Shown in pieces: positions 2,123-45,147 of a stretch of DNA of 64,000 nt. The DNA is from an uncultured Acidobacteriota bacterium (GTDB lineage Bacteria; Acidobacteriota; Vicinamibacteria; Vicinamibacterales; 2-12-FULL-66-21). Position 1 is the stretch's first letter. Each line of letters opens with the position of its first letter. The notes under the pieces were generated by a model. The model was not told where the DNA came from, did no database searches, and saw nothing but the letters and a program-made list of their open reading frames with translations. Both the position numbers and the translations under genes were made by a program. The stretch is from NCBI GenBank assembly GCA_963749835.1, contig CAVVOD010000003.1, positions 656,721-720,720 on the forward strand, given 5' to 3'.

Positions 2123-2127
2123 GCGAC

Positions 2128-5662: not shown

Positions 5663-5682
5663 GAATCAGGCCCCGCCCGCGC

Positions 5683-9697: not shown

Positions 9698-9700
9698 AGA

Positions 9701-11174: not shown

Positions 11175-11187
11175 GGGGGTGAAGCGA

Positions 11188-26213: not shown

Positions 26214-27079
26214 CTACAGCAAGGTTCGAACCCCGGTGAGATGAGCGCGCGTCCAGAGACCTGCACGCGCGTCAGGCCTTTCCCCCCCGCACTTCACGGT
26301 CGCGAATGCGATCGCTATTCCTGCAAGCAGTGTGGCGATCGGATCGATTCGAGATGCACGAACGGCGGGGACTGCGGCGGCGAGGATGCCGACAACGAGC
26401 AGCACCGAGATCGTTGGCAGGAAGACCATCGGATCGCTGGCGGTGACTTTGGCGACGAAGGTCGCGCGCATCGCGAACGCCATCGGCACAGCCAGGGCCA
26501 GCCCGCACGCCATGCCCGCCGGCACGAGCGTCATTGCCTAACGGATCACCAGAGTGACGATACGAGAGGGCGGAGCGCCGATCGCCAGGCGCACGCCGAT
26601 CTCGCGCCGACGGAGCGCGACGATGTAGGACAGCACGGCATAGAGTCCCGTCGCGGACGGGACCAGGGCCACGGTGCCGGCCGCGCCGGCGACATAGACC
26701 GCGCCGGCCATCTCCCGCGCCTCTTCCTGGAATTCCATGTCACCCCGGCGGATCGATGTCCAGGTGATCCGCGGATCGATCCGGTTGACGAGCGTCAAAA
26801 GATCGGCGCGCAACGCCTCGGGATCGGCGGCGCGCACGCGAACGGTGAACTCGGTGCTCAGCGCCTTCGAGAGGGGCGCGACGCAGAGCGGTCGGTGGTC
26901 TGCGGCGCGCCGGGCAAGCCGAATCGCACGCCGTCGTCGGTCGAGAGCGAAACGTGAGTCACACGTCCGTCCGCGGCCGCGCCCGTCACGACGGTGTCCG
27001 CGAACCGGCGCGCCTCGAGCGGCGGCCATATGTCGAGGAATGCGCCCGGGATGCTCGATAATGGGTGAGTGTCCGTCAT
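26214..27079 (-). pseudogene. truncated ADOP/FtsX permease remnant (second half only) with frameshifts and an in-frame TAG
   Basis: MTDTHPLSSIPGAFLD... reads through a frame switch near 26900 into ...LYAVLSYIVALRRREIGVRLAIGAPPSRIVTLVIR-TAG(26538-40)-AMTLVPAGMACGLALAV...AVPAVRASRIDPIATL. The canonical ending is reachable only by another 1-nt shift (stop 26325-27). The N-terminal ~550 aa of a full ADOP are missing. Confidence 0.55.
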
Positions 27080-27920
27080 GTCCCATTCGATGATTGCGCG
27101 GGCCGTACGGCGGCCGACGCGCATCGGAGGCCGCCGCGCGCGCCGTTCGGCCTCGCGCCTGGGACGACGCGCGCTGCTGGCCATGCGGGTCGCCCCGTTG
27201 GCCGTCCAGATAATCGTCGGGACGGTCCTGCTGGTGATCGTCTGGGTGGCCGTGAACGGGATCGTGCAGGTCGTCCGCAAGCCCACCGAAGTGTTCGTCG
27301 GGGTCGGCGGCTCGCTTGCCAAGGTGCCGGCGCAGACCTGGCGGCAATACGGCCCGCTCTTCGACGAGCACTCCACGGCGGTCATCACACCGGAATTGCT
27401 GGCCGCTCTGGCCCAGGTGGAGAGCAGCGGCAACCCGGTGGCACGGGCCTACTGGCGGTGGCGGTTCAGCTGGAATCCGTTCGAGCTATACGGACCGGCC
27501 TCGAGCGCGGTCGGGATGTTTCAGATCACCGATGGAACGTTCGCAGCGGCCCGGCGCACTTGCATCCACGATCACGTCGTCGTCGAGGACGGGCCCTGGC
27601 ACGACCCGCAGTCGTGCTGGTTCAACGCGCTCTACACACGAGTGGTGCCCGCTCATGCCGTGGAGATGACCGCCGCGCTGCTGGATCGCACAGTCGCGCG
27701 TATCCTCGCCCGGAACCGCATCACCTCCGCCTCGCTGCCGCAGCGGCAAAACCTCGCGGCGATCATCCACCTGTGCGGCGACGGCGCCGGTGACGGATAC
27801 GCGCGCCGGGGCTTCCGATTCAAAGGCGGCCAGCGATGCGGCGACCACGACCCCCGCCGCTACCTTGCGCAGGTCAACGACCTGAAGCGTCAATTCGCCC
27901 GGCTGGCTGCGGCCGACTGA
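27069..27920 (+). CDS. lytic transglycosylase (SLT domain) with N-terminal membrane anchor
   Basis: LAALAQVESSGNP (catalytic Glu-Ser motif) followed by AVGMFQITDGTF. There is an N-terminal TM helix (VAPLAVQIIVGTVLLVIVWVAV). The exact start is uncertain. Confidence 0.8.
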   Translation: MSVMSHSMIARAVRRPTRIGGRRARRSASRLGRRALLAMRVAPLAVQIIVGTVLLVIVWVAVNGIVQVVRKPTEVFVGVGGSLAKVPAQTWRQYGPLFDEHSTAVITPELLAALAQVESSGNPVARAYWRWRFSWNPFELYGPASSAVGMFQITDGTFAAARRTCIHDHVVVEDGPWHDPQSCWFNALYTRVVPAHAVEMTAALLDRTVARILARNRITSASLPQRQNLAAIIHLCGDGAGDGYARRGFRFKGGQRCGDHDPRRYLAQVNDLKRQFARLAAAD

Positions 27921-29385: not shown

Positions 29386-32058
29386 CTATGAGCCGCGGAG
29401 GACCACCACTGGATCAACCCTCGCCACTCTCGCGGCCGCGCACCAGGATGTAAGCAGGGACGTCAACGCGAGCGAGCCACCTGCCGCAGCGAACGTTGCC
29501 AGATCCCGCGGTGGCACGTCGTACAACATGACGGTCATCACAGGGGCCAGCACGAACATTCCCAGAACACCAAGTGCAATGCCAACCATCGCGACAGCGA
29601 TGTCGTGCCGCACTACCTGACGGACCACATCTGTCGGCCTCGCTCCCAGCGCAAGCCTTATCCCAATCTCACGTGTTCGTTGCGCGACGGAGTGAGCGAC
29701 GACTCCATACGCACCTGTCAGCGCCAGGAACAACGCCACAGCGGCGAAAAGGCACAGCAGGCTCAGACTGAAGTTGCGGTTCGCGATCGAAGCGCCAAGC
29801 ACCTCGTCCAGCGTCGCAAACTCCGCAATGGCCTGTGTATGATCGAGCCGGGCAATCGTCTCGCGGACCGACGGAGCGACGTTCATCGGGTCTCCGTGGG
29901 TTCGAACAACGACCCGCACGGACCTCAAAACCATGGAGCGCTTGAAAGGCGCATACACCTGCGGCAACGGTTCCGCGTCCAATTGCCAGTCTTTGAAATC
30001 GACAACGACGCCCGCAATCGTGCCGCTGACATAGGGTCCTGTCACGTGTCGTCCGATCGGCTCCTGCCCACGCAACACGGTTTCGACAAATCGCTGGTTC
30101 ACGAGGAGCGCGTCGGTCGACTCAACCGCGTCACTCGAGAGCGCGCTGTCGCTGGGCCATCGTCCTCGGATCAGGGGCACGCCGATTGCGCGCAGATACC
30201 CCAGAGACACGGGTTTGAATGTCGCGAACGTCTGGCTGCCCGGAACCGACTCGGACGTTTCCGGGGCAACGCCATCCACTTTGACCGGGGAGTTGAAGGA
30301 TCCTGCATCGATGCCAACGGCCGAGACTCCGGGCACGCCCTCCAGGCGTTGCAACAACTCCTGGACATACTGTTCCTGCGGAACTCGGCTCGCGTAACGC
30401 GGTCCTGATAACGACACTCTCGTGACTAGAATCTGTTCAGGATCGAACCCTGGAGGACCGGAGCTCATGAGCCAGAAGCTCTTGAACATCAACCCTGCGG
30501 CGATGAGCAGCGCCGTGGCGAACGTCAGTTCAAGGGTCACGAACAAGCTCCGAATGCGACGCACTCCAGGCGGGGGCGACGTCATTTTGTCTTCGCGTTT
30601 GAGCGCTGAGGTAAGGTCGGTTCTCGAGAGCGCGGCCGCAGGAGCGATTCCAAACAACACGGTGCTCACGAGAGCCGCGACGACTGCGAAGACCAGGACC
30701 TGGGCGTTGATAACGGCTCCTTCCAGGCGGGGAACGGCATGTGGCCACAACCGAACGATGGCCTGGAGTGCCCACTGCGCCAGCGTGAGGCCCGCTCCGC
30801 AACCAACGAGCGCCAACAGCAGACTCTCTGAAAACAGCTGGCGGACAATGCGGGTTCGTCCGGCCCCGAGCGAGGCGCGAATCGCGATTTCCGCCTGCCG
30901 TGACAACGATCGGGCCAACAAGACGTGCGCGATGTTCGTGGTGGCAATCATCAGAATCAACGCGACCGCGATGAGCAGGATCTTCAGGGGTGTCTCAACC
31001 GGGCTGACAACCTTGTCCAGCAACGGCACGACGCGGAGGGTCCTCCCTTCACGCAGCGGGGTTGGGAAGTCGCGGGCAATCTGGTCGAAGATGCCCTGAA
31101 GCTCGGTTCGCCCTTGTTCGAAGGCAGCGTCCGGTCGCAACTTGCCTACAACCCGGACCCATCCCGACACGGGACGCCCGCCAGGGATGCTCCTGTCCGG
31201 GGCCCCTGGCTGGCCTGGCGCGGTGGACAGCGCGATGTAGGCGGCTGGATCCATCAGGTCGTTACCCAACGCGTCAGGAAATGCGACGCGGTAATCACGG
31301 GCGAGCACCCCGACGATCGTCACGGGGTACCCGCTCAGCGTCACAGTCCTCCCGAGCACACTTCCGTCGGCCTTGAATTTTTGTTCGAACAGCCGGTGGG
31401 AGAGGACAACCGCGTTCTGTTCATCCGGCGCGAACAACCGGCCGAGCTCCGCCTTTGCCCCTGTCATGGCCCAGAAGTCTTCCGATACCAGCGTGACCTG
31501 CTCGTCGTTCGCTTGACCGGATGCGAGAAGGGCGACGTCGGCCTGGCCGTATGCGGCCATTCGCTCGAACGACTTCGCACGGTCGCGCCAGATGGTGAAA
31601 TCCGGCCGCGACACCATGGTGTCGATGTTGAAACGATAGGCGTGGGGCGTGATCCAAACCAGTCGTTCAGGATCTGGGTGCGGAAGCGGACGGAGCAGCA
31701 CGGCGTGAAAGACGCCGAATATCGCGGCATTCATGCCGATAGCGGTCGCCATCGTCAGAACGACGACGACGGATACGCCGGGACTCCGGCGGATCATTCG
31801 AAGGCCGTAGCGCATATCCTGCAACCACGAATCCCAGGATCCCAGCCAGGCCTCGCGCGCCTCCTCCCTCGCCAGCATGACGTTGCCGATGGCTCGTCGG
31901 CTCGCATCCTGTGCCGCAGACGCCGGTAGACCTTGCCGCTCCAGGTGCATCTGTCGCAACGAGCGGTGCGCCTCGATCTCCTCGCGAAGCTCCGCGTCGA
32001 GGCGAGATTGTCGGAGGAGGTAAATAAACTTGCGAAGCCATCTACGCATCTGCGACAC
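29386..32058 (-). CDS. ADOP-type duplicated MacB/FtsX-like permease (lower-GC copy)
   Basis: 890 aa. N-terminus RRWLRKFIYLLRQSRLDAELREEIEAH, two FtsX halves, C-terminus AARVARVDPVVVLRGS. A hand-counted line (30421-30480) gives about 55% G+C. No intact PadR lies upstream. Confidence 0.9.
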   Translation of the reverse strand: MSQMRRWLRKFIYLLRQSRLDAELREEIEAHRSLRQMHLERQGLPASAAQDASRRAIGNVMLAREEAREAWLGSWDSWLQDMRYGLRMIRRSPGVSVVVVLTMATAIGMNAAIFGVFHAVLLRPLPHPDPERLVWITPHAYRFNIDTMVSRPDFTIWRDRAKSFERMAAYGQADVALLASGQANDEQVTLVSEDFWAMTGAKAELGRLFAPDEQNAVVLSHRLFEQKFKADGSVLGRTVTLSGYPVTIVGVLARDYRVAFPDALGNDLMDPAAYIALSTAPGQPGAPDRSIPGGRPVSGWVRVVGKLRPDAAFEQGRTELQGIFDQIARDFPTPLREGRTLRVVPLLDKVVSPVETPLKILLIAVALILMIATTNIAHVLLARSLSRQAEIAIRASLGAGRTRIVRQLFSESLLLALVGCGAGLTLAQWALQAIVRLWPHAVPRLEGAVINAQVLVFAVVAALVSTVLFGIAPAAALSRTDLTSALKREDKMTSPPPGVRRIRSLFVTLELTFATALLIAAGLMFKSFWLMSSGPPGFDPEQILVTRVSLSGPRYASRVPQEQYVQELLQRLEGVPGVSAVGIDAGSFNSPVKVDGVAPETSESVPGSQTFATFKPVSLGYLRAIGVPLIRGRWPSDSALSSDAVESTDALLVNQRFVETVLRGQEPIGRHVTGPYVSGTIAGVVVDFKDWQLDAEPLPQVYAPFKRSMVLRSVRVVVRTHGDPMNVAPSVRETIARLDHTQAIAEFATLDEVLGASIANRNFSLSLLCLFAAVALFLALTGAYGVVAHSVAQRTREIGIRLALGARPTDVVRQVVRHDIAVAMVGIALGVLGMFVLAPVMTVMLYDVPPRDLATFAAAGGSLALTSLLTSWCAAARVARVDPVVVLRGS

Positions 32059-32363
32059 CCCCAGCTACGCCGCTTCCAGCACGGGGCTGGATTCGATCGA
32101 ACCATGCGTTCGAACTCCGCTCGTTCCGCGTTCGTTTGTCCCATCACCAGTTGATGGGGAAGCTACATGGTTACGCGGAGAAATGCAAACTGATGGATTA
32201 GGATGGCGGAGAAGATGGAACTCGTGGTCGCTCACACGAATACTGCACGCGCAGCGAGTGTACCTGTTCCGGGCTACACTGTCCTCGAACTCGCGCCGCC
32301 GACCCCATAAGCGTTCATGCCCCGAGCGTCCGAAACTTCCTCCGTCATTCCGACGAACGCGCG

Positions 32364-33995
32364 ATGCGACTGCTCACTCCGATGCTCCAGATTCAGCGGG
32401 GACCACACATGACTCGAACGAACGCCGTCGTTGGCGGTGTGACATTGGTGATCGGGCTGGTGGCAATCGCCATCGCGTTGCCACGCGCCCAGGCGGGCGC
32501 TCCCGCGAAGCCGGCAGCAGGAGCGCGTCAGGGCGGTGCGCCGGACCAGGGCGGCCGCGGTGGTCCCGACGCCAATCCGACGGCTGCGCTCTTCACGGCG
32601 CAATGTTCAGGCTGTCACGGCACGGACCTGGCCGGAGGCCGGGCGCCCAGCCTGTTCGATGAGCGGTGGCTCGCATCGACGACGGACGAGCGAATTGCGA
32701 ACGCGATTCGCAATGGTGTTCCGAATACCGCCATGGTGCCGTTCAAGAACTTGGGTGACGAACAGATCTGGCAACTCACGCAGTACGTGCGAACGCAGAG
32801 CGGCGTCCTGAAAGCGCGTCCCGCGTTCGTCGTCGCCGCCCTGGACGGCGCGGTGGTGAAAAGCGAGAAGCAGACGGTGCGTATGGAAGTCGTGGCCAAG
32901 GATTTGGACACGCCATGGGGCATCGCGTTTCTGCCCGACGGCCGCATGCTCGTCACCGAGCGGACTGTCGGCGGCGGTCAGCTTCGGGTCGTGGAGAAGG
33001 GCGTCCTGCTGCCGGCCGTGAAGGGCACGCCACGTGTCCACGTCCAACAGGATGCCGGGATGTTCGATGTGCAGGTGCACCCGCGGTACGCCGACAACGG
33101 CTGGATCTATCTGTCCTACGCGGAGCTCCTTCCCGGCTACACGCCGCCGGCCGCGCCGGCCGCCGGCACGGGTCGCGGCGGAGCGACGGCGCCGTCGATG
33201 ACCGCGATCGTCCGCGGACGACTGAGAAACAACGAGTGGGTCGATCAGCAGTTCATCTATCACGCGCCGCCGGCGCTCTACACGGCAGACGGTTCGCACT
33301 TCGGGTCGCGATTCCTCTTCGGACGTGATGGGCATCTCTTCTACTCGATTGGCGATCGCGGCGTGATGCGGAACGCGCAGGATCTGTCGAGCCCGCTCGG
33401 CAAGATTCATCGGGTGAATGACGATGGGACGATTCCGGGCGACAACCCGTTCGTGAATACGCCGAACGCGGTAGCGTCAATCTGGAGCTACGGCCATCGC
33501 AACCCGCAAGGCCTCGCGTGGGATCCCGTCTCCGGCCGGCTCTGGGAAACGGAGCACGGGCCCACGGCTGGCGACGAGGTCAACATCATCGAGCGCGGAC
33601 ACAACTACGGATGGGGAATCGCGACGAAGGGCACCGAACCCGGCATCACCAAGAGCTCGGAGCCGGGGATGGACGAGCCGATCGTGTACTACATCCCGAC
33701 GTACGCACCGGCGGGCATCTCGTTTTCGACAAGCGATCGCTATCCCGCCTGGAAGAATACGAGCCTGTTTGTCGGCGGTCTCGCCGGGCAGGCACTTCGC
33801 CGTCTCGAAATCTCCGGCAGTCGGGTGACGCGACAGGAAGTGATCTTCAATCAGTACGGCCGCGTGCGCGACGTGGTCGAAGGACCGGACGGCTACCTGT
33901 ACCTCGCCATCAACCACGCCACCGGTGCAGGAACGAACTACGGTCTCATCGCGCCGGTCCCTGGCTGGGTCGTCCGGCTCATGCCAGTGCAGTAA
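32364..33995 (+). CDS. PQQ-dependent sugar dehydrogenase (soluble glucose/sorbosone dehydrogenase family) with N-terminal cytochrome c domain
   Basis: A CSGCHG haem motif with a downstream Met region (NTAMVPF). The SGDH propeller follows (PWGIAFLPDGRMLVTER, HFGSRFLFGRDGHLFYSIGDRG, WSYGHRNPQGLAWD, GHNYGWG). An alternative start at ATG 32409 (MTRTNAVVGG..., TM/signal) is likely. Confidence 0.85.
   Translation: MRLLTPMLQIQRGPHMTRTNAVVGGVTLVIGLVAIAIALPRAQAGAPAKPAAGARQGGAPDQGGRGGPDANPTAALFTAQCSGCHGTDLAGGRAPSLFDERWLASTTDERIANAIRNGVPNTAMVPFKNLGDEQIWQLTQYVRTQSGVLKARPAFVVAALDGAVVKSEKQTVRMEVVAKDLDTPWGIAFLPDGRMLVTERTVGGGQLRVVEKGVLLPAVKGTPRVHVQQDAGMFDVQVHPRYADNGWIYLSYAELLPGYTPPAAPAAGTGRGGATAPSMTAIVRGRLRNNEWVDQQFIYHAPPALYTADGSHFGSRFLFGRDGHLFYSIGDRGVMRNAQDLSSPLGKIHRVNDDGTIPGDNPFVNTPNAVASIWSYGHRNPQGLAWDPVSGRLWETEHGPTAGDEVNIIERGHNYGWGIATKGTEPGITKSSEPGMDEPIVYYIPTYAPAGISFSTSDRYPAWKNTSLFVGGLAGQALRRLEISGSRVTRQEVIFNQYGRVRDVVEGPDGYLYLAINHATGAGTNYGLIAPVPGWVVRLMPVQ
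33932..33993 (+). repeat. left copy of imperfect 62-bp direct repeat (last 20 codons of the sugar dehydrogenase gene)
   Basis: Aligns base by base with 40482-40542. By hand count, 53 of 62 positions are identical, including one 1-nt gap. Confidence 0.8.
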
Positions 33996-34039
33996 CGGCT
34001 CGATTCGATCCGGCCCAGGAGAATCCCGCGAACGAGTGA

Positions 34040-35500
34040 TCACTCGAGCATGTCCGAGAGTTCTCTCCGGCCGAGCTCCTCTTCGAGGGTGGACGGCTCG
34101 ATCATCCGATGGAGGTCTGGAATGACGTGCAGCAGCGCGCGCATGTGGTGCTCGATGCGTTCGCGGACGAACTTGCGGAACTCTTCGTTCCTCAGGCTGA
34201 CGAGATCCCTCAGTTCCTCGGGCATCGCGGGCGGGACGTCGTCGAGCGGCGCCAGCGCCGCATCGAAGCTCTCGCGGAATGCCTGCAGGCGATCGAGATG
34301 CTCCATCAGCTTCCGGTCGCCGTCGCGCCCCGTGATCGCTTCGAGCTGCTTCTCGAACAGGTGCCGTTCCGCCAGCGTCTCTATCGTCTCGTTGCTGAGG
34401 GGTGAGACGAACACGCCGACGAACTCCTCACGGAACTTCTTATCCAGCTCTTCTGTCACTTTCCAGTTCTCATCCAGCTCCCGCACAATCTCGTTCTGGA
34501 ATGCTGTCCCGTCGTCGCGCTGACGGCCGGTCGCAAGGTCGGAGATCCAGTCGGGAAACTCGCGGCGCGCTTCCTGGATCCACTCGTGCGCCACCGTGAC
34601 ATTGTTCTCCTTCATGTACCGGTCGACATCACCGCGGGTCTTGTTGAACATCGTGAGGACGCCGCCGCGCTCTGTGCTCACGAGCGTGCGGTAGGTCTGC
34701 ACGAGCTCCCGGTGCAGGCGCGCGCGGTCGACGAGCGCGGCCGCCGCGAGCTCGAGCTGCTGCTGCGCGGAACGGAGCTGGGTCTCCATGTCGCCCGGCA
34801 TGCCGTCGGGCTTGATCTGCTCGAGCACCCATTGCTTCAGGAACTCGACCGCTGTCTTGAGCCACTCCCCTGCCGGCCCCAGCTGCGCCTTTGCCTTGGC
34901 CTTGAGCTCCTCAACCTTGCGCTTTGCGGCCTCGGCCGCCTTCGCCGCATTGTCCACGAGCTCTTTGTGCCACTGGTCCAGGTCCTCGACGATCTCCTTC
35001 ACCATCTCGTCGATCCTGCGCACTGCCTGCAGCTGGTCGGTCTCGAGCGCGGTATCGGCGCTCAGGACGAACTTCCAGCCGTCCTGCAACTCCGCAATGA
35101 GCTTCGATAGTCCGTCCTGGTGTTTGAGGATGTCGTCGAGGAACCGCGGCGCCTCCATGGCCATCATCGGCTCGAAGAACGACTCCTCTGCCTGCAGCGC
35201 CGTGGCCCAGAACAGCTGCAGCGGCGGGGGCAGCATCAAATCCTTCACAGCGTCGCCGAACAGCCGGTTGTACTCGGCGCGGAACGCGGTCACGCGCGCG
35301 TCCCAGCGTGCTTCGGTTCCCAGGTTCCCGGCGCTGGCCTTGGTGATGATGTCGACGAGCTCGTCGAGCGCCCGCTGCCGCAGATCCACGTAGCGGTCGA
35401 TGCACTGCGTCAGTGCCGTGCGCACACGCTCGTCCGCGCCGACAGCGGCCTGCGTCAGTTGCTCGCGAAGCTCTCCGGGGCGAGCGCCATAGGCCGCCAT
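34040..35500 (-). CDS. hypothetical all-helical protein (486 aa), unknown function
   Basis: Long ORF with high GC3 and an E/K/R/L/D-rich helical composition. There are coiled-coil-like stretches (AAKAAEAAKRKVEELKAKAKAQ). No TM segment, no signal peptide and no catalytic motif I recognise. It starts 24 nt after the stop of the upstream PDZ gene. Confidence 0.6.
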   Translation of the reverse strand: MAAYGARPGELREQLTQAAVGADERVRTALTQCIDRYVDLRQRALDELVDIITKASAGNLGTEARWDARVTAFRAEYNRLFGDAVKDLMLPPPLQLFWATALQAEESFFEPMMAMEAPRFLDDILKHQDGLSKLIAELQDGWKFVLSADTALETDQLQAVRRIDEMVKEIVEDLDQWHKELVDNAAKAAEAAKRKVEELKAKAKAQLGPAGEWLKTAVEFLKQWVLEQIKPDGMPGDMETQLRSAQQQLELAAAALVDRARLHRELVQTYRTLVSTERGGVLTMFNKTRGDVDRYMKENNVTVAHEWIQEARREFPDWISDLATGRQRDDGTAFQNEIVRELDENWKVTEELDKKFREEFVGVFVSPLSNETIETLAERHLFEKQLEAITGRDGDRKLMEHLDRLQAFRESFDAALAPLDDVPPAMPEELRDLVSLRNEEFRKFVRERIEHHMRALLHVIPDLHRMIEPSTLEEELGRRELSDMLE

Positions 35501-35524
35501 CGTCTGCCTCTTCTCTCAACGCCG

Positions 35525-37178
35525 TCAGATCGACTGGCGGGTCGCAATCCGCCACGGACCGCCGCCGCGGCGCTGCAGCGTCCACTGCCGGTTCACCTCG
35601 GAACTGTTGAACGCGTGAAACTTGCCGTCGAATTCCCCGATGTGTTCGAGCTCCGCGCCAACCTGCTCGATCCGAGGTGCGCCGGGATACTCGTCTCCGT
35701 TCTGCAGCATCCGCGGCTCGTCGACCCAGACGACGCGGACGTCACAGACCGTCTCGAGCATGCGGCGCTGGGAACGAACCCAGTCCTCGTCCCGGGTGCC
35801 TGGCGCATACGGATCGAATGGATAGTAGATGGGACGCTGCTCGTCCGGGAGGAAGCGCCAGACGGCGAAGAGCTGATTCCAGACACCTTGATCGCCCGCT
35901 TTGAGCGCCGCAACCATCGCCTCGAGGACCTCGCGCGGACTGGCTTCATCGGGCGGCACGGTCGCACGCGGGCGCCTGATGTCGTCCTCGCCGGCAAACG
36001 GCGATTCGTCTTCGCGCACGACCGAGAGGTCGACGAACATGGCATCGTCTGCGAGCACGGCGATCGGCTGGACCTCGAATCCGGCCACGCCACGGCCGCC
36101 CATGACGACCATTCGCGGGTCCTGAAGGACACGGCCGACGAGGGCATAGGTATCGCGGATGCGGGGCGTCACGAGCCGCTTGTAGCGCTGCTGAGCCAGA
36201 AACGCCCTCCGCATGTCCGGCGCATCGGCCGGCACGAAGAACCAGGTCCGATTCTGCTCGGACCAGAGAAAGCTGCGATCGACGCTGACGACCCATTGCG
36301 ACGGCGGAATGGCCGGCAGCGCCACGAGCTTCCCGGTCACCGCCGCACGATCGCCGCGCAGTGGATCGACGGAGGGGATCTCGTGCAGCAGCTCGCCGTC
36401 GTGTGCGCCGAGGTATGCCTTCCACCCCTCGGCGGCGCGTCGTGCCACAGCAGCCGTGCGCTCCTCTTCGACCTCGCGAAAATCGAGAGCGTCCGGCGTC
36501 AGCGTGTAGAGCGTCCCCTCGAGACTGCTTCGGACCGCATCCCAGTCGGCCTTGACGGCATCCGCAAACGGTCCCGGATAGGTGCGGCTCAGGAAGTCGA
36601 CGCGCGCGCCTTCCTCCAGATGGTCCGCAAGGGTGCGGCGCGTATTCAGTCGTGCCTCCCAGCCGCCGTCGAGCACGCGCTCCCAGTCGAAGACGCGCTT
36701 TTCGTACCAGCCGGACCACGGGCCGTCGAAACCGTCGGTGATGAGCGACTCGGGGCCGGTCGGGCCCATGCCACGACGCCCGTTCTCGCCGCTATAGGCG
36801 CGCTCGGCCCGCACCTGGCCGGTCACTTCGATGATCTCCCACCCCTCGCCCGGATACCTGCGCCGCCGGACGCTCAGGCGCAGCGGACTGCCGTCGACCA
36901 GCCCGCGCCCCTTGAAGGTGTCACTCTCGTTGAGGCCACCCGGCAACTCGCGAATCGCGCGCTGCATCGCGGGCGTGTCGGCCGGCCGGACGAGCGCTAT
37001 CCCGTCGATGGCGACAATCTGATCGCCAGCGCGCAGTCCGCTGTCGCGGAAACCGCTGTTCCACGCGATCCACGACACGCGGAGCGCCGGCGTACAGGCT
37101 CTCGAGCAGGCTGCGCGTGCTCAACCCGCTCCGCAGCGTGTCAAAGACGATCTCGCGCCAGTCAACGCCTTCAGTCAT
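35525..37178 (-). CDS. hypothetical PDZ-domain protein (about 550 aa), apparent 5'-proximal frameshift
   Basis: The 517-aa ORF begins in a PDZ-like segment (GLRAGDQIVAIDGIAL). The upstream ORF from ATG 37178 (MTEGVDWREIVFDTLRSGLSTRSLLESLYAGAPR, 30/37 GC3) joins it by a 1-nt shift near 37075. The remainder has no recognisable family. The C-terminal ~120 aa may be NTF2/SnoaL-like (a guess). Confidence 0.55.
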
Positions 37179-37375
37179 GGTCCATCAGCGGGTGAAGATT
37201 GCCGCAACTGGCACAAGCGAGCAAGGGAAATGGAGCGGGGATTCTCGTTCAGGCCAGGTGTGCCGCGCCAGTCGAGCACTCGTCCGCGCGTCCTGACACC
37301 GGCCGAAGGTCGTGCCAGGTGCAAGGGCTCGTTTTAAACCTTTTGGCCGGTGTATATATCTAAAGAGACAAACGT

Positions 37376-37726
37376 ATGACCGGACACCGACATCCGGAGC
37401 CGCCGGCCCTCGAACCGCACTGGTTCCAGATGCTGCTGGCGCTCGCGGACCAGGATCTGCACGGGCTCGGCATCATGAACGAAGTCCTGGAGCGAACCGG
37501 CGGCCGGATGCGGCTGTGGCCGGCGATGCTGTACCGGAACCTCGCACGGCTGGCGGACCTCGGGCTGGTTGCCGAAGTGGCCCAGCCGCCCGGCGCACGC
37601 GCCGGGGGAGGACGGCCGCGTTTCTATCACATCACGCCGGCGGGCCGCCGCGCCTGTGCGGCAGAGGCGGAGCGCCTCGCCGGATTCGTGGAGGCCGCCC
37701 GCCGCAAGCGGCTGCTGAAAGCGTGA
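37376..37726 (+). CDS. PadR family transcriptional regulator
   Basis: FQMLLALADQDLHGLGIMNEVLERTGGRMRLWPAMLYRNLARLADLGLV...RFYHITPAGRRA. Its stop overlaps a GTG of the downstream ADOP reading frame (GTGA at 37723-26). Confidence 0.9.
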   Translation: MTGHRHPEPPALEPHWFQMLLALADQDLHGLGIMNEVLERTGGRMRLWPAMLYRNLARLADLGLVAEVAQPPGARAGGGRPRFYHITPAGRRACAAEAERLAGFVEAARRKRLLKA

Positions 37727-37731
37727 ACCGG

Positions 37732-40461
37732 ATGCGCCGCCTCCTTCTCCTGCTGCTCCCGCGTGATGCTGGCGTTCACCAGCACGAGCTCGACCAGCAA
37801 TTCGAGTACTGCGTGCGGCGCGAGCGCGCGCGCCTCGGACGGCTGGGCGTTCCCTACGCGTGGGCGAGGCTCGTCCTCGACGTCGTGATGACGTCGCTGC
37901 TCCTCCGCCGCGACGCCTGGCACCGGCGGCGCATCAACCGCCTCGGCGCTCAGGTGACTTCTGGAGATTCGATCATGATCAGACTGCGCGAAGATATCCG
38001 CTACTCGGTCCGTGTTCTTCTTCGAAGCCCCGGTTTCTCGGCGGCAGTCGTCATCGCGCTGGGGCTGGCGATCGGCGCCACGACGAGCGTGTTCACCGTG
38101 GTGAATGCGGTGCTCCTGAAGTCGCTGCCGTTCAGGGACGCATCGCGGCTGGTCATGGTCTTTGAGGAAATTCCTGGGACGAACTCGGGTCCGATCTCGT
38201 TTTCCGCGCCGGATTTCAGAGCGTTCCAGGAACGCGCACGGAGCTTCGACGGCCTCGCGGCCTACGCCACGAAGACCTACGAGCTGTCGGGCATCGATCA
38301 ACCCGAGCGCGTGGCCGCGCTTCGCGCCTCGGCGGCGCTGTTCGACGTCCTCGGTGCCGCACCCGTCCTGGGGCGCGCATTCACGCGGGAGGAGGACGAG
38401 GGGCGGATCCCGGTGGCCGTGCTGAGCGACGGATTGTGGCGGCGATCGTTCGGCGCCGATCCGTCGGTGATCGGCCGCGCGGTGATGATCGATCGCCGTG
38501 CGCATACCGTCGTCGGCGTGATGCCCCGGACGTTCGTGTTCCCCAGCAAAGGTCCGCTTCACAACAACGAGCCGGCCGACCTCTTCGTGCCCGTCAGCTT
38601 CACGAGCGCGGAGCTGAACGGCTTCGCCAGCATGTACAACAACAGCGTCATCGGGCGCCTGAAGCCGGACGTCACGCTGCAACAGGCGGATGCAGACACG
38701 CGCGCCGTCGTCGCCCGGCTCGTGAGCGAGGTCTATCCCGCTCCGATGGGGGACGGCGGGTTCAGGCTCTCCGGATCGGTGAGCCCGCTGCGGACCGAAA
38801 CCGTCGGCCGGGTGGAACGCCTGCTCGAGATCCTGTTCGTCGCCGTGATGATTGTGCTGCTGATCGCCTGCGCCGACGTCGCCAGCCTGATGCTGACGCG
38901 CGCCGTTGCGCGAAGCCGCGAAGTCGCCGTGCGGTCGGCACTCGGCGCCAGCCGCGCGCAGCTGGCGCGGCAGGTGCTCACCGAAGCCGCGCTGCTGTCG
39001 CTCGGGGGCAGCGTGCTTGGCGTGCTCATCGCCTATGCGTCCACGGAAACGATCGCGCGGGTGGCGCCCCCGACCATCCCCAGGCTCAACGAACTCGCGC
39101 TGGACTGGCGCGTGATGACGTTCGCGATCGTCAGCTCGATGCTCACGGCGCTCGCCTGCGGCTGCCTGCCGGCCCTCGAGCTCTCGCGCCGGCCGTCCGC
39201 GGACGCGCTGAAGGACGGCGGACGGAGCGGAACGGCCGGCAGGCGTCAGAAACGGCTGTTCGGAGCGCTCGTCACGGCGCAGTTCGCCCTGGCCGTCGTA
39301 CTCCTCGTTGCCGGTGGCCTGCTGATTCGCAGCTTCAACCGGCTGATGGCGGTCGACCCCGGCTTTCGATCCGAGCGCGTGATCACGCTCGCGACGAGCC
39401 TGCCGGCGCTCGCGTATCCCGACGCGCAGTCAATCCGGGCGTTCTATCAACGGCTGCTCGAGCAGGTCGAGGCGCTGCCGGGCGTCAAGGCATCTGCGGC
39501 ATCGACCGACCTGCCGCTGTCGATTCGCGAGCGCCGAGCGTTCACGATCGAGAATCCGCCGCCGCTGCCCGAGTCCGTCCCGAAAGTGATCGCACAGGAT
39601 TGGGTCGTCGGGCAGTACTTCGAGGCGCTGGGGATCACGCTCCGACGTGGACGCTTCCTCTCCAGCCAGGACACGGGACGATCCGAGCCTGTCGTGGTCG
39701 TCAATGAAGCGTTGGCGAAGGCCTTTTGGGCGAATCTGGACCCGGTGGGACAGCGAATCGCATTCGGCGGCGCACGCGATCACGGTCCATGGATGCGCAT
39801 CGTCGGGATCGTGGCTGACGTCAAGCAGGGACCGCTGGGAACGCCGGTCGTTCCGCAGACCTATACGCCCTGGCTGCAGACCTCCAACGGAATGGTGGCG
39901 GACAACGTGGTCGGAGCCCTGCGCGCGTTGAAGGTCATTGTTCGCACCGACAGCGATCCGCTGGCGGTTGCCGGCGCCATCCAGGCCCAGGTGCGGGCCA
40001 TCGACGGCTCGCTGCCGATCTCGCGCCCCCGCACGATGGAAGAAGTCGTTCACGGATCGCTCGAGCCGCAGCGCTTCAACACGGTGCTGCTCGCGGCATT
40101 CGCGGCCGTTGCCGTCACACTGGCCGGCGTCGGGATCGCGGGCGTGCTTGCAACCGCGGTGTCACGGCGCACGCAGGAGATCGGCGTGCGCATGGCGCTC
40201 GGCGCCGAGCGGCCGCACGTGCTCAGGATGATCATCCGTCAAGGCATGGCGCTGGTGCTCGCGGGCGTGGCGGTCGGCGTCCCCGCCGCGTTCCTCGCGG
40301 CGAGGTTCATGTCGAGCCTGCTGTTCGGCGTTGGCCCGCGCGACGCAATCTCTTTTGTCGGGGCAACAACCCTGCTGCTGGCGGTGGCGCTCGTCGCCTG
40401 CTATCTGCCCGCGCGACGCGCGACCCGGGTCGATCCGATGGTCGCGCTCAGATGGGAGTAG
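37732..40461 (+). CDS. ADOP-type duplicated MacB/FtsX-like permease with N-terminal prefix domain
   Basis: Start at ATG 37732, or at the GTG 37723 coupled to the PadR stop. The track ORF (from 37312) runs over the PadR gene in another frame. Two FtsX halves are present. The C-terminus is LPARRATRVDPMVALRWE. Confidence 0.9.
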   Translation: MRRLLLLLLPRDAGVHQHELDQQFEYCVRRERARLGRLGVPYAWARLVLDVVMTSLLLRRDAWHRRRINRLGAQVTSGDSIMIRLREDIRYSVRVLLRSPGFSAAVVIALGLAIGATTSVFTVVNAVLLKSLPFRDASRLVMVFEEIPGTNSGPISFSAPDFRAFQERARSFDGLAAYATKTYELSGIDQPERVAALRASAALFDVLGAAPVLGRAFTREEDEGRIPVAVLSDGLWRRSFGADPSVIGRAVMIDRRAHTVVGVMPRTFVFPSKGPLHNNEPADLFVPVSFTSAELNGFASMYNNSVIGRLKPDVTLQQADADTRAVVARLVSEVYPAPMGDGGFRLSGSVSPLRTETVGRVERLLEILFVAVMIVLLIACADVASLMLTRAVARSREVAVRSALGASRAQLARQVLTEAALLSLGGSVLGVLIAYASTETIARVAPPTIPRLNELALDWRVMTFAIVSSMLTALACGCLPALELSRRPSADALKDGGRSGTAGRRQKRLFGALVTAQFALAVVLLVAGGLLIRSFNRLMAVDPGFRSERVITLATSLPALAYPDAQSIRAFYQRLLEQVEALPGVKASAASTDLPLSIRERRAFTIENPPPLPESVPKVIAQDWVVGQYFEALGITLRRGRFLSSQDTGRSEPVVVVNEALAKAFWANLDPVGQRIAFGGARDHGPWMRIVGIVADVKQGPLGTPVVPQTYTPWLQTSNGMVADNVVGALRALKVIVRTDSDPLAVAGAIQAQVRAIDGSLPISRPRTMEEVVHGSLEPQRFNTVLLAAFAAVAVTLAGVGIAGVLATAVSRRTQEIGVRMALGAERPHVLRMIIRQGMALVLAGVAVGVPAAFLAARFMSSLLFGVGPRDAISFVGATTLLLAVALVACYLPARRATRVDPMVALRWE

Positions 40462-40481
40462 GTGATTCGACGCGTCGCTTC

Positions 40482-40542
40482 AACGGCTTACGGTCTCATC
40501 GCGCCGGTACCTGGCCTGGTCGTACGGCTCGTGCCAGGCAGT
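40482..40542 (+). repeat. right copy of imperfect direct repeat: orphan 3'-end fragment of a sugar-dehydrogenase paralog
   Basis: Encodes AYGLIAPVPGLVVRLVPGS, compared with NYGLIAPVPGWVVRLMPVQ-stop at 33932-33995. It begins 20 nt after the ADOP stop. No upstream dehydrogenase body is present. Confidence 0.8.
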
Positions 40543-40707
40543 CGCCTTGACGGCGCGGGCGAAATTCCGGTGATCCAGTCTCACCGACCTCGGCCGTGGG
40601 ACAATGTGGGTTCCGGGCGAATTCTGACGCTCGCGTACCTAATACTGCTGCGGATGTCGATCCGCGCGTGCCTCCGCGTCAACATGGCAGACAAGGAGGA
40701 AAGAGCC

Positions 40708-41058
40708 GTGAAATACATTCTGCTGATCTACGGGGACGAGCGCGAGTGGACGTCGATGTCGAAGGAGGATATGGCCAAAGTCTACGAGGAGCACGGCGCC
40801 TACTCAGACGCGATGGTCAAGGCCGGTGTGATGCGGGGCGGTTACGAGTTGCAGCCCGTTGCGACGGCAACCAGCCTGCGCTTCACCAACGGCAAGGCGA
40901 AGACGTTCGACGGTCCATTCGCCGAGACGAAGGAGCAGCTCGGCGGTTATTACATCATTGAAGTGGACACGCTCGACCAGGCAATCGAGTGGGCTGAGAA
41001 GATGCCGGCGATGGCTTCGGGCACGGTTGAGATCCGTCCGCTCGGCATGGGCTCGTGA
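40708..41058 (+). CDS. YCII-related (DGPF) domain protein
   Basis: VKYILLIYGDEREWTSMSKEDMAKVYEEHGAYSDAM...FDGPFAETKEQLGGYYIIEVDTLDQAIEWAEKMP. The GTG at 40708 lies 8 nt after AGGAGG (40694-99). ATG 40684 is an alternative start. Confidence 0.85.
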   Translation: MKYILLIYGDEREWTSMSKEDMAKVYEEHGAYSDAMVKAGVMRGGYELQPVATATSLRFTNGKAKTFDGPFAETKEQLGGYYIIEVDTLDQAIEWAEKMPAMASGTVEIRPLGMGS

Positions 41059-41076
41059 CGCCCCCGGCCTCTCCGC

Positions 41077-42381
41077 ATGCTGCTCACCCGCATCGTCGAT
41101 AAGGTCGCCCGAACGGACGGTCCGCGCGTGCTCGCCGGGCTGATCCGCCTGACCGGAGGCGACTTCGAGGCGGCTGAGGACGCGCTCCAGGAGGCCTACG
41201 CGCGCGCGCTGGTCGTATGGCGCCGGGATGGGCTCCCGGCGCAGCCCGGCGCGTGGATAAACACCGTGTCGCGTCGCGTGCTCCTCGATGCGCTTCGACG
41301 CGGGGCCACGCGCCGCAAACGGTGTGCGTCGCTCGACGATGAAGTCGCGGACACCACCTGGATCGAGATGCCCGCCGCTGATGCTGACGGTCCTGCGCCC
41401 GTCGACCCTTCAGGCATCGACGACGACCGGCTTCGGCTGCTCTTCGTGTGCTGCCATCCTGCGCTCTCGCCAGAGGCGCAGAAGACGCTCGCGCTGCGAA
41501 CCCTCGGCGGCCTGACGACACGACAGATCGCGCGCGCGTTCGTGGAGCCTGAACCGACGACCGCGCAACGTCTGGTCCGGGCCAAGCGGAAGATTCGCGA
41601 TACGCGGATCTCGTACGAGGTGCCGCCGCGGGCAAGGCTCCCTGAGCGCATCGATGTCGTCCTGTCGGTGCTCTACCTGATTTTCAATGAGGGGTACGCG
41701 TCCACGGACGCGCCCTCGCTCGTCCGTCCGGATCTGATGACGGAAGCGATCCGTCTCGCCCGCCTTGCGGTGGAGCTGCTGCCGGACTCGGCCGAAGCTC
41801 GTGGCCTGCTTGCGCTGACGCTCCTCACTGACGCCCGTCGTCCTGGCCGCCTCACCGAGCACGGGGAGTTCGTGCCGCTCGAGGAACAGGACCGTAGTCT
41901 CTGGAATCACGGGCAGATCGACGAAGGCGTGAAGCTTCTGGACGAGGCCCTCGCACACGGCGCGCCAGGGCCCTATCAGATTCAGGCGGCAATTGCGGCG
42001 CTCCACTCGCGCGCCCACACCGCCGCCGCGACGGACTGGCCACAGATCGCCGCGCTCTACCGCGCCCTGCTGCAGCAGCTGCCGACCCCAGTCGTCGAAC
42101 TGAACGCCGCCGTTGCGCTGGGTCTTGCGACCGACGTCGATCGCGCGCTGAATTGGATCGCGCGGCTGGAACAGCACCCGGACCTCGCGGGCTACCACCT
42201 CCTGCCCGCGTCGCAGGCGGATCTGCTGAGGCGTCAGGGACGATTCGAAGCCGCGTCCCGCGCCTATCGCCGCGCGCTGACGCTCGTCACGAATCCGGCG
42301 GAACGGCGGTATCTGGACCGGCGCCTCGCGGAGACCCTGCGGGGCGAAGACAAAGCGACTTGCACCCATGTCGCCAGATAA
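41077..42381 (+). CDS. ECF sigma factor with long C-terminal TPR-like extension (ECF42-like)
   Basis: Sigma-2 region (FEAAEDALQEAYARALVVW...PGAWINTVSRRVLLDALRR) and sigma-4 region (LRTLGGLTTRQIARAFVEPEPTTAQRLVRAKRKI), plus a ~230-aa helical extension. It lies immediately downstream of a DGPF gene. Confidence 0.85.
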   Translation: MLLTRIVDKVARTDGPRVLAGLIRLTGGDFEAAEDALQEAYARALVVWRRDGLPAQPGAWINTVSRRVLLDALRRGATRRKRCASLDDEVADTTWIEMPAADADGPAPVDPSGIDDDRLRLLFVCCHPALSPEAQKTLALRTLGGLTTRQIARAFVEPEPTTAQRLVRAKRKIRDTRISYEVPPRARLPERIDVVLSVLYLIFNEGYASTDAPSLVRPDLMTEAIRLARLAVELLPDSAEARGLLALTLLTDARRPGRLTEHGEFVPLEEQDRSLWNHGQIDEGVKLLDEALAHGAPGPYQIQAAIAALHSRAHTAAATDWPQIAALYRALLQQLPTPVVELNAAVALGLATDVDRALNWIARLEQHPDLAGYHLLPASQADLLRRQGRFEAASRAYRRALTLVTNPAERRYLDRRLAETLRGEDKATCTHVAR

Positions 42382-42570
42382 ATTGTTTGACGTTATTGAA
42401 ACCCAGGATGACGGAGGAGTACCAGTGCCGTCGAGGTGATCGAGAAGACCGATCGAGACGGCATACCGATCCGACCATGGGCCCCATGCCCAGCCGCTCG
42501 CAGACGAGACCGATCTGCGTCGGCAGAGCGCGATGGCATTGCTGAAACCAAATAGCCGGTGCCCGATCGA

Positions 42571-45027
<2,457 letters not shown>

Positions 45028-45147
45028 TCCTCCCTGACGTGAACTACGACACGGGACCCCAATCGTTCCACAAGACAGTGCGCAGCGACACCGCGGTTCA
45101 GAAAGGCTAAGCTGTCCCTCGCAGTCGACAACACGGAGAGGTGAACG

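Follow-up and report, generated by a model that had tools for sequence, protein, structure and literature searches.

A duplicated dehydrogenase gene tail marks a rearrangement junction beside a PadR-ADOP module in an uncultured Acidobacteriota bacterium

Gene content of the locus

Within the 64-kb stretch of DNA that was analysed (the window), an intact gene encoding a cytochrome c and PQQ glucose/sorbosone dehydrogenase (GSDH; 32409..33995, plus strand) lies beside ADOPa, a permease gene on the minus strand (29386..32058; TIGR03434, 730 bits). The GSDH protein of 528 amino acids matches PF13442 and has a full-length PF07995 beta-propeller domain (E=4e-110); its start is likely at 32409, which gives the same length as that of the gene in L098, the closest relative found (93-97% nucleotide identity to the window). 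The gene is followed by the 3' flank that is usual in this GSDH clade, CGGCTCGATTCGATCCGGCCCAGGAGAA (33996..34022, plus strand; 24/26 identical to L001/L002/L006). This flank is common to most clade alleles. The GSDH gene itself is found in many genomic contexts.

Four genes fill the block downstream of this flank, and they are those of the original prediction: a pair on the minus strand and a PadR-ADOP cassette on the plus strand. The pair, module D (34023..37208; 96.9% identical to L098rc 8499-11684), consists of a gene for a helical protein of 486 amino acids (34040-35500) and a PDZ-like gene (35525-37178) whose PDZ match is weak and which has a 1-nt indel near 37096. Module N (37330..40461; PF03551, TIGR03434) comprises a conserved upstream region, a PadR gene (37376-37726; PF03551, with a match to TIGR03433 below the cutoff only) and the permease gene ADOPc (37732-40461; TIGR03434, 897 bits versus a cutoff of 622). 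ADOPc has the architecture of the ADOP family, i.e. two MacB_PCD and two FtsX stretches, with PadR immediately upstream. The block is a composite of these two modules, which are found separately elsewhere. Module D is placed after ECF42 and orf474 in L098, and has 84% identity to its counterparts in L099-L101, where the context is different. Module N is present in L102 (92.7% identity), L103 (84.9%) and L104 (94.1%) with unrelated neighbours in each; counting the window, the PadR-ADOP module occurs in four different contexts, with a left edge that is constant within 3 nt.

The spacer between the modules (37209..37329) opens with ~28 nt of the native sequence upstream of the PDZ-like gene, which is shared with L099 (15/17 identical in register, a value reached by 0/2000 shuffles); the rest of this spacer gave no matches. 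The flanks of module D reach further in the window than in L098 and match those of the outgroup L099, which implies that the placement of D in the window is not the derived one.

ADOPc is followed by the first nucleotides of a HAD-like gene (40462..40481, plus strand; GTG ATT CGA CGC GTC GC..), the same gene start that normally follows ADOPc, and then by the remnant of a GSDH tail (40482..40542, plus strand). The adjoining spacer (40543..40707, plus strand) corresponds by orthology to the intergenic region between GSDH and YCII in L098; the final ~60 nt, conserved in L080-L082 too, probably hold the promoter and ribosome-binding site (RBS) of YCII. Module B (40708..42381, plus strand; 93.3% identical to L098) carries YCII (40708-41058; PF03795, GTG start) and an ECF42-type sigma factor gene (41077-42381; PF20239, sigma-70 r2/r4), a pair which in L080-L082 is located upstream of an SLT gene. 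A 62-nt spacer with a hairpin (42411..42472; fold z-score -1.8) separates ECF42 from the convergent module E (42473..45091, minus strand; 94.9% identical to L098), an ADOPb pseudogene in three ORF pieces with about 14 indels. The L098 counterpart of ADOPb is intact (812 aa), and the position of the 62-nt spacer is occupied there by orf474 and module D.

Two copies of the dehydrogenase gene tail

Pairwise alignment of the last 62 nt of the functional GSDH gene (copy 1, 33932-33993, plus strand) with the sequence at 40482-40542 (copy 2), 6.5 kb downstream, gave 53/62 identical positions, one 1-nt gap and an exact core of 20 nt, which agrees in coordinates and numbers with the duplication originally described. 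The 20-mer, TACGGTCTCATCGCGCCGGT, occurs at 33939 and 40489 only in a window scan that tolerated 3 mismatches, the chance expectation being 0.01. The similarity of the copies stops precisely at the stop codon, where GCAGT is followed by AA in copy 1 and by CG in copy 2. Copy 2 starts 20 nt past the ADOPc stop codon (40459-40461), with no dehydrogenase body upstream, both as predicted; the 20 nt, given at first as a distance, are now recognized as the start of the truncated HAD-like gene. Copy 2 translates as STAYGLIAPVPGLVVRLVPGS and covers only residues beyond the PF07995 domain. The peptides encoded by the two tails are essentially alike, and the downstream copy is decaying: a TGG to CTG change removed a conserved Trp, a 1-nt deletion shifted the reading frame, and the stop codon is lost.

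A degenerate 26-mer scan of metagenome contigs yielded 14 loci, and 14/14 proved to be 3' ends of full-length GSDH genes (89-93% identical to that of the window); among 79 genome loci the tail sequence likewise matched at GSDH ends only. In public data the tail is thus restricted to the 3' ends of one GSDH clade, and it is no generic repeat; occurrence at many unrelated loci would have undone the original prediction. Chance resemblance, a generic repeat, a function as RNA or regulatory element, and mis-assembly are all very improbable explanations of the similarity. A role for the stump might be suspected from its placement in the 5' region of the YCII-ECF42 operon, in frame with YCII inside a 198-codon ORF (40462-41058). 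The repeat has, however, no Rfam match and nothing unusual in its folding (z-scores -0.4 and -0.1), and the stump has kept neither the conserved Trp nor its reading frame and stop codon. L098 also speaks against such a role, since an in-frame TAG is found there upstream of the YCII GTG start and YCII has its own RBS. YCII begins at 40708, and the 198-codon ORF, which runs from the HAD-like start through the GSDH stump into the YCII leader, is a chimera that is not to be called as a gene. Copies only 85% alike would not be mis-joined by an assembler.

The empty site and the right junction

In L098 the genes ADOPa (minus), GSDH (plus), YCII and ECF42 are contiguous and the tail is present once; the dehydrogenase is directly followed by the YCII/ECF42 pair, the arrangement whose presence in relatives had been proposed as a check. 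ADOPa and GSDH (segment A) are collinear in the two sequences (window 29391-33994 to L098rc 172-4776, 95.5% identity over 4.6 kb). The single L098 tail aligns to window 33932-33994 and also to 40483-40545. The stump and the next 165 nt are orthologous to the end of the L098 gene and its GSDH-YCII intergenic spacer, diverging by 12.7% in the stump and by 26.7% in the adjoining unconstrained spacer, with 2.6-5.7% for coding genes. The usual clade flank CGGCTCGATTCGATCCGGCCCAGGAGAA is missing both after the L098 gene and after the stump. Since the stump has the flank of the L098 gene, and ADOPa lies upstream of GSDH in both sequences, the stump belongs to the GSDH/YCII junction of this very locus and an unrelated second gene is not required. 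The GSDH/YCII junction in L098 lies exactly at the stop codon of the intact gene, as expected if it was formed on a gene under selection.

The right junction of the block (40481/40482) is a fusion of two truncated genes, HAD(+20) and GSDH(-62), with 0-1 nt overlap. In L103 and L104, where 55 to at least 165 nt of the HAD-like start are retained after ADOPc, the gene continues as VIRLVAFDLDGTLVDS; by context, the truncation of this gene falls at about 0, 20, 55 and at least 165 nt. The view that the stump marks a rearrangement junction is borne out. None of 19 related GSDH loci has the 6.5-kb block, a further stump or an occupied site.

The two tail copies are distinguished by the states GCT/GTA versus AAC/GTC, and among 20 alleles GCT and GTA are common to the stump and L098 only. 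Conversely, ATG at 33981 is common to copy 1 and L098 only, the stump carrying the clade-wide GTG. Sites shared with L098 only are spread evenly along GSDH, one of them within the last 62 nt, and no clear switch of allele type is visible inside the gene. Every module is about equally far from L098 (3-6%), which gives no signal of a distant donor for the block. L098 has derived changes of its own, i.e. orf474 and module D between ECF42 and ADOPb and a shortened upstream region of D, and the polarity of events rests on this one close relative.

Features of mobile elements

One of the two explanations offered originally was an old insertion into the 3' end of the gene that duplicated its target in the manner of an island. 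The notion of an insertion-type event is favoured by the orthology of the stump flank with the L098 flank; the island itself finds no support. Recombinase-driven integration into the GSDH 3' end, with a 62-nt attachment site duplicated, would fit an insert bracketed by direct repeats and an empty site with one copy, as seen in L098, and known elements do enter the 3' ends of genes and supply a new tail. In such an integration, element DNA is expected inside the left repeat, yet the native clade flank is found there (24/26 identical to L001/2/6), and it is then the right copy that carries the flank of one derived arrangement only, that of L098. Nor does the insert recur as one piece with constant ends: D (in L098 and L099-L101) and N (in L102-L104) are found apart from each other, and on its right side the insert stops in a truncated HAD-like gene. 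The absence of other stumps and occupied sites among the related GSDH loci also speaks against an island.

Searches of the ORFs of the scanned region with Pfam, NCBIfam and PADLOC revealed no integrase or transposase domains; in the block they gave only PadR, ADOP and a weak PDZ match. A fold search with the AF2 model of the PDZ-like protein (pLDDT 93.5) returned PDZ and NTF2-like folds only and no recombinase fold; the helical protein, for which sequence searches only were made, had no informative match. No tRNA was found in the region, terminal inverted repeats are missing at 34023 and 40481, the block has no compositional break, and the module borders showed no hairpins of the attC type. 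A site-specific island is accordingly hardly credible. A transposon target-site duplication was also considered and rejected, 62 nt being far above the usual length, with neither terminal inverted repeats nor a transposase.

Origin of the duplicated tail

We propose, with a probability of roughly 0.5, that the window arose by recombination between two alternative gene orders that follow one ADOPa-GSDH pair and that an illegitimate join has united. The combination of the ancestral clade flank after copy 1 with the derived GSDH/YCII junction after copy 2 is what points to two orders. The first (S1) would consist of GSDH, its usual 3' flank, the helical/PDZ pair, PadR-ADOPc and the HAD-like gene; in the second (S2), GSDH would be joined at its stop codon to the upstream region of YCII-ECF42, followed by ADOPb. 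A single non-homologous, non-site-specific junction would have united them, with S1 broken after the first 20 nt of the HAD-like gene and S2 broken 62 nt before the GSDH stop. The tail would now be present twice because both orders carry it. The upstream copy, under selection, would keep the gene intact, and the downstream copy, freed to decay, is at the same odds best explained as a non-functional scar.

The most likely route would be that S1-type DNA was taken up or exchanged from a sister haplotype, anchored by homologous recombination in the shared ADOPa-GSDH segment and closed at the other end by an illegitimate join, through homology-facilitated illegitimate recombination (HFIR) or an equivalent single crossover of a circularised fragment. 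Two features of HFIR are present in the window: the upstream anchor is collinear (29391-33994, 95.5% to L098), and the far junction is illegitimate (0-1 nt overlap). The S1 haplotype, the direction of the event and the pathway are inferred, and a purely intragenomic route fits as well. Among the retrieved genome and metagenome loci there was neither an S1-type haplotype with an intact HAD-like gene nor a donor. The ATG at 33981 does not fit a simple scheme in which copy 1 derives from S1 and copy 2 from S2, and needs a back-mutation in the stump or gene conversion.

The explanation preferred originally was that the stump is what remains of a second dehydrogenase paralog, with the conservation of its amino acids as the argument. 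That argument is not discriminating, since such conservation is to be expected of every recent tail copy, and the idea is less favoured than an insertion-type event; in a modified form it stays as a doubtful yet serious candidate. The ancestor would have carried GSDH1, the usual flank, D, N and the HAD-like gene and, further on the same chromosome, GSDH2 joined to YCII-ECF42. As parts of this one tentative scenario, a deletion from HAD+20 to GSDH2-62 would have removed the second body in the window lineage, and homologous recombination between the copies would have left L098 with one GSDH joined to YCII. A single deletion accounts for the truncated-gene fusion at 40481/40482, the clade-specific states in both tails fit recent paralogs, the modules are equally diverged from L098, and the many contexts of GSDH make extra copies plausible. 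On the other hand, a second GSDH body or its remnant is absent from the 64-kb window, and a single L098 gene has both the upstream neighbour of the window gene and the downstream neighbour of the stump. L098 must also lose module D and then regain it 1.9 kb downstream, and an extra duplication is required to make GSDH2.

Tandem duplications are the commonest spontaneous rearrangement, and one spanning GSDH-62 to HAD+20 would yield exactly one downstream-to-upstream junction, such as 40481/40482, with HAD+20/GSDH-62 as the only new joint. The tails would be identical at birth, no donor would be necessary, and later divergence could account for the differences between the copies. The second copy would then have been mostly deleted up to the YCII upstream region, so that the GSDH/YCII junction would arise on a dead stump, and yet it lies exactly at the stop codon. 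To have this junction on its intact gene, L098 needs recombination within 62 nt and a re-acquired module D. YCII-ECF42 must, moreover, have been downstream originally, while in L080-L082 the pair is upstream of the SLT gene. We regard this course of events as unlikely.

GSDH, PadR-ADOP, YCII-ECF42 and the helical/PDZ pair each have 85-97% DNA identity between genomes, with unrelated neighbourhoods in nearly every sampled genome. The constant left edge of PadR-ADOP, within 3 nt in four contexts, could point to a module-moving mechanism beyond illegitimate recombination filtered by selection. Unusually fast shuffling of operon-sized modules in this Acidobacteriota group by an unrecognised promoter-to-terminator mover, recombinase-independent or trans-acting, of which the stump would be one visible footprint, is an idea to which we give only slight credence.

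Taken alone, the stump has small significance: it is a piece of pseudogene by which one rearrangement can be placed and dated. It suggests that gene order around ADOP cassettes in these soil Acidobacteriota may change by illegitimate joins through dispensable genes, without the machinery of mobile elements. The tie to ADOP cassette turnover that the original prediction drew is a fair one, given the four contexts of PadR-ADOP among relatives and the neighbouring ADOPb pseudogene. The wider pattern, in which genes and operons are near-identical between genomes and their neighbourhoods reshuffled, is worth a genome-wide study.

Comparison with known systems

Phage 21 and e14 integrate into the 3' end of icd and supply a substitute tail. 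As in such prophages and islands, a second version of the tail before the insert keeps the gene of the window intact, a diverged, displaced tail is found at the far end, and a relative has the empty site. Unlike these elements, the locus has no integrase domain in its scanned ORFs, no conserved att core beyond the homology of the gene and no ends specific to an element. After the left copy comes the native 3' flank, and the insert itself is pieced together from chromosomal modules. The single-operon modules in varied neighbourhoods (GSDH, PadR-ADOP, YCII-ECF42, helical/PDZ) are reminiscent of integron cassettes, from which they differ by the lack of attC-like hairpins at the borders and of a recombinase domain in the scanned ORFs, by borders that vary between genomes and by mixed orientations.

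HFIR and the single-crossover integration of circularised fragments have reportedly been described before (de Vries & Wackernagel 2002; Prudhomme et al. 2002; Meier & Wackernagel 2003). Like the products of HFIR, the window combines an end within homologous sequence with an illegitimate join, almost or wholly free of microhomology, at the opposite end, and a partial duplication of the homologous locus can remain in such cases. Such events in E. coli conjugation give duplications of 109-950 bp of the homologous locus (PMC3240628); the 62-nt duplication of the window is shorter than these, and HFIR is here deduced from sequence comparison only.

The Rhs, CDI and T6SS effector loci differ from the window in their biology: the window gene is a housekeeping-type periplasmic dehydrogenase and no polymorphic toxin, the displaced piece measures just 62 nt, and an array of orphans lying one after another is missing. 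Both tails encode essentially one peptide, so that no functional diversification has taken place, unlike in those loci. C-terminal displacement with orphaned 3' ends reportedly occurs in all three (Jackson et al. 2009). The course of events would be alike, with incoming DNA that shares the conserved 5' part of the resident gene and brings a 3' end of its own and downstream genes, the resident 3' end being pushed downstream as an orphan fragment. Displaced orphan 3' ends have been documented in T6SS and Rhs loci, and homology-facilitated illegitimate recombination was proposed there as the mechanism of C-terminal displacement (Kirchberger et al. 2017, PMC5361080).

A duplicated 3' end of the GSDH gene

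The cytochrome c plus PQQ glucose/sorbosone dehydrogenase gene (GSDH, 32409-33995), the product of which carries a cytochrome c domain and PF07995 (E=4e-110), has its last 62 nt repeated at 40482-40542, with 53 of 62 positions identical and one 1-nt gap in the alignment. The similarity of the gene's own tail (copy 1) and the repeat (copy 2, the stump) ends precisely at the stop codon. The stump begins 20 nt past the stop codon of ADOPc, an ADOP permease gene, and has no dehydrogenase body ahead of it; the bracketed block is 6.55 kb long. The original prediction had described this duplication, with a minus-strand PDZ/helical gene pair and a plus-strand PadR-ADOP cassette in the block, and both duplication and gene content are borne out. 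A 20-nt exact core of the tail occurs at two sites only in the window, even with three mismatches allowed (chance expectation 0.01). Every locus recovered by scanning one genome per species with the GSDH protein (79 loci) or metagenome contigs with a degenerate 26-mer (14 loci) has the tail sequence as the 3' terminus of a full-length GSDH gene, and no further stumps were seen among them. A generic repeat, the alternative envisaged earlier, or a chance match is ruled out by this expectation and by the confinement of the tail to GSDH 3' ends in the public loci scanned. An origin from a distant paralog is likewise ruled out, since the best matches of the stump are tails of the window's own 89-97% identity clade (e.g. 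45/49 to the clade contig L002).

A 14-nt direct repeat, CCGGTGCAGGAACG (33922-33935) and CCAGTGCAGTAACG (33984-33997), is identical at 12 of 14 positions and has a spacing of 62 nt, precisely as long as the duplicated tail. The match may be due to chance or may be a microhomology that took part in the event.

An empty site in a related contig

L098, a 15.5-kb metagenome contig (ENA ERZ27310924), was found with the block's PDZ-like protein as query (97% identical) and compared in the orientation of the window (L098rc). Segment A, the minus-strand ADOPa gene with GSDH, spans L098rc 172-4776 and window 29391-33994 (95.5% identity); segment B, the GSDH tail with YCII and ECF42, L098rc 4715-6651 and window 40483-42410 (93.3%); segment C, orf474, L098rc 6651-8499, is absent from the window; segment D, the helical and PDZ genes, spans L098rc 8499-11684 and window 34023-37208 (96.9%); and segment E, the minus-strand ADOPb gene, L098rc 11689-14297 and window 42473-45091 (94.9%). 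PadR-ADOPc (window 37209-40482) is missing in L098. The order in L098 is A-B-C-D-E; in the window it is A, a 28-nt flank, D, a spacer, PadR-ADOPc, a 20-nt start of a HAD-like gene, the stump, B, a 62-nt spacer and E. Divergence from L098 is equal across all modules (3-6%). The 474-aa orf474 (L098 7120-8544), located between ECF42 and the helical/PDZ pair, has no family match and no counterpart within the 64-kb window.

An intact GSDH leads directly into YCII-ECF42 in L098, and the 165 nt 3' of the stump are orthologous to the L098 GSDH-YCII spacer. The question whether the dehydrogenase is directly followed by YCII/ECF42 in a relative is thus answered positively, L098 being the empty site. The single 62-nt GSDH tail of L098 aligns to both window copies; a second dehydrogenase paralog, of which the stump would be the remnant in one version of the original prediction, is not required. 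The prediction stands in part: the rearrangement junction common to both its versions and the insertion-type relation to the L098 empty site hold, the island-type target duplication of its other version does not. Despite the existing empty site, a site-specific island is unsupported, because the ORFs scanned in and next to the block contain no domain of an integrase, a transposase or any other recombinase, no tRNA, Rfam family or unusual fold of the repeat was found, and neither inverted repeats at the block ends nor a compositional break is present. The lack of such a break also disposes of a compositional island, and the search for an RNA element or terminator found nothing.

The junctions and the PadR-ADOPc module

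The right junction was resolved through relatives of the ADOPc protein. PadR-ADOPc occurs in three further contigs (L102, L103 and L104) at 85-94% nt identity among unrelated neighbours, and in L103 and L104 a HAD-like gene with a GTG start (VIRLVAFDLDGTLVDS...), of which the remainder would bear the motif FDLDGTLVDS..., lies immediately 3' of the ADOPc stop. This gene is cut at nested, different points in each context, about 0 nt being kept in L102, 20 nt in the window, about 55 nt in L104 and at least 165 nt in L103. HAD(+20)/GSDH(-62) is thus the junction in the window: two truncated genes joined with an overlap of 0-1 nt, the signature of illegitimate recombination. At the left junction, the canonical GSDH flank adjoins module D (the helical/PDZ pair) at 34022/34023.

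The PadR-ADOPc module extends over window 37330-40481, L102 9598-12728, L103 9602-12747 and L104 1500-4643. Its left edge lies some 45 nt ahead of the start of PadR, is the same within 3 nt across these four unrelated contexts and bears a conserved TTCAAACCTTTTGGCC...TATATATCTAAAGAGA. Two patterns gave no support for a shared operator motif of the module elsewhere in the window; one of them, mis-designed, missed its own source site.

A 198-codon ORF (40462-41058, plus strand) reads through the HAD-like start, the stump, the YCII leader and YCII. This ORF is accidental, produced by the junction, and could misdirect gene callers. Against a stump-YCII fusion protein, which was rejected, stand an in-frame TAG in L098 and the RBS (AAGGAGG box) and GTG start (window 40708) that belong to YCII itself.

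Assignment of the two tails

Among 20 alleles, codons GCT and GTA are common only to the stump and L098. The stump has lost a conserved Trp (TGG to CTG), one base, resulting in a frameshift, and the stop codon. It differs from the L098 tail by 12.7%, compared with 26.7% for the adjacent unconstrained spacer and 2.6-5.7% for YCII and ECF42, values that fit neutral decay over much of the time since the window and L098 split. The 26-28 nt after copy 1 match the post-stop flank of most clade alleles (24/26 identical); this flank is missing in L098 and after the stump, where sequence from upstream of YCII joins GSDH exactly at the stop. Both the ancestral gene-flank arrangement and the derived GSDH/YCII junction are present in the window, which therefore combines DNA of two arrangements, S1 (GSDH, usual flank, module D, PadR-ADOPc, HAD-like gene) and S2 (GSDH fused to YCII-ECF42, then the spacer and ADOPb). 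An ATG at 33981, common only to copy 1 and L098, conflicts with a clean assignment of the tails; gene conversion, or a back-mutation in the stump, would be required to explain it. Inside GSDH, neither the density of mismatches nor the allele-specific sites show a clear breakpoint or an allele switch that would mark a recombinant tract.

That recombination of the two tails in a window-like ancestor gave rise to L098 was rejected, as GCT lies only 4 nt into the repeat in L098 and module D is kept there. An extended match between the canonical flank and the helical gene, by which L001, L002 and L006 would carry a helical-gene stump, was dismissed as not significant.

Module D and the surroundings of ADOPb

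L099-L101, in which module D has 84% identity and a different context, served as outgroup. Compared to these, the flanks of D reach further in the window than in L098 at both ends, the right flank being identical at 15/17 positions in register (reached by 0/2000 shuffles) and the left at 13/15 (26/2000 shuffles), so the position that D occupies in L098, between orf474 and ADOPb, is a derived one. In the window, the 62-nt hairpin spacer between the convergent ECF42 and ADOPb genes looks like a native intergenic region, and orf474 with D was probably inserted at this spacer in L098.

ADOPb (42571-45027, minus strand) is broken into three ORFs, carries about 14 indels when compared with the intact L098 ortholog (812 aa) and is probably a pseudogene in the window. 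Sequencing error is unlikely for these indels, because segments A and D are nearly free of coding indels. The pseudogene state fits the turnover of ADOP cassettes.

The helical 486-aa and PDZ-like 550-aa genes (34040-37178, minus strand) are paired in the Acidobacteriota contigs examined (L098-L101), and homologs of the PDZ-like protein are found in Myxococcus, Planctomycetes and Burkholderiales (proteins P0121-P0186 for the gene pair). The confident AF2 model of the PDZ-like protein (pLDDT 93.5) predicts an N-terminal PDZ and a C-terminal NTF2-like domain, with nothing else matched in the PDB. Sequence searches gave no informative match for the helical protein, and no match in families, PDB or defence systems explains the function of the PDZ-like protein; annotation of the pair as a defence system was rejected, as only a weak ZorA-like match (E=0.005) was obtained and PDB sequence searches were empty. 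Compared with L098 and the family consensus, the PDZ-like gene (35525-37178, minus strand) has a 1-nt indel near 37096, some 27 codons in, and is either disrupted or restarts at GTG 37078.

Gene order in the clade

The clade shows a very fluid gene order. A set of 19 other contigs (L001, L002, L006, L007 and L084-L098) carries GSDH at 89-97% DNA identity, and the conserved unit (window 32243-34023) comprises the gene, about 25-165 nt ahead of it and 0-80 nt behind it. Past the stop, at least nine different downstream contexts begin after 0-80 nt; in almost every contig the adjacent genes are unrelated, which suggests single-gene transfer or extreme local reshuffling. PadR-ADOPc is found in four contexts and module D in three. 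In L080-L082 (84-88% identity) a minus-strand amidohydrolase gene, YCII, ECF42 and an SLT-domain gene follow each other. In the window the SLT-domain gene (27069-27920) has a pyrF-like gene after it and is found 12.7 kb upstream of YCII (YCII-ECF42 region 40647-42333); the order is therefore permuted. Remnants of the YCII-ECF42 neighbours known from L080-L082 (amidohydrolase, DoxX, luciferase-like, HEAT) were not found in the window. Systematic shuffling of modules by an unrecognised mechanism, at which only the fixed left edge of PadR-ADOPc hints, is improbable.

Arrays of a 7-nt unit, GGGAYTC, lie at 60307-60360 and 63257-63458 beside short hairpin-like GGCGGAAG/CTTCCGCC motifs, and bear no relation to the tail duplication.

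A proposed route to the window arrangement

In the minimal scheme for all junctions, S1 up to HAD+20 would have been joined to S2 from GSDH-62 onward. We propose, with a probability of about 0.5, an exchange between sister haplotypes, in which homologous recombination in the shared ADOPa-GSDH region would accompany an illegitimate join, by homology-facilitated illegitimate recombination or by single-crossover integration of a circularised fragment. This exchange is favoured because the GSDH/YCII junction sits exactly at the stop codon, and so formed on a selected gene, and because L098 requires fewer additional steps. Equal module divergence from L098, the lack of an allele switch inside GSDH and the ATG at 33981 do not discriminate between this and the following two routes. 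The presence of two GSDH copies in one genome followed by a deletion, a variant of the paralog explanation, costs L098 more extra steps and is a tentative second choice. A tandem duplication of the interval from GSDH-62 to HAD+20, then a deletion, is unlikely, the position of the GSDH/YCII junction pointing to formation on a selected gene. Tandem duplication of the YCII to GSDH interval was rejected as the source of that junction, since it places the flank-bearing and YCII-bearing copies in the wrong order.

Partial duplications of homologous loci are a known outcome of both processes proposed for the haplotype exchange (PMC3240628). The stump is an ordinary scar of illegitimate recombination, of a kind already known, and the C-terminal displacement seen in T6SS and Rhs loci (PMC5361080) is an evolutionary pattern parallel to the displaced GSDH tail of the window.
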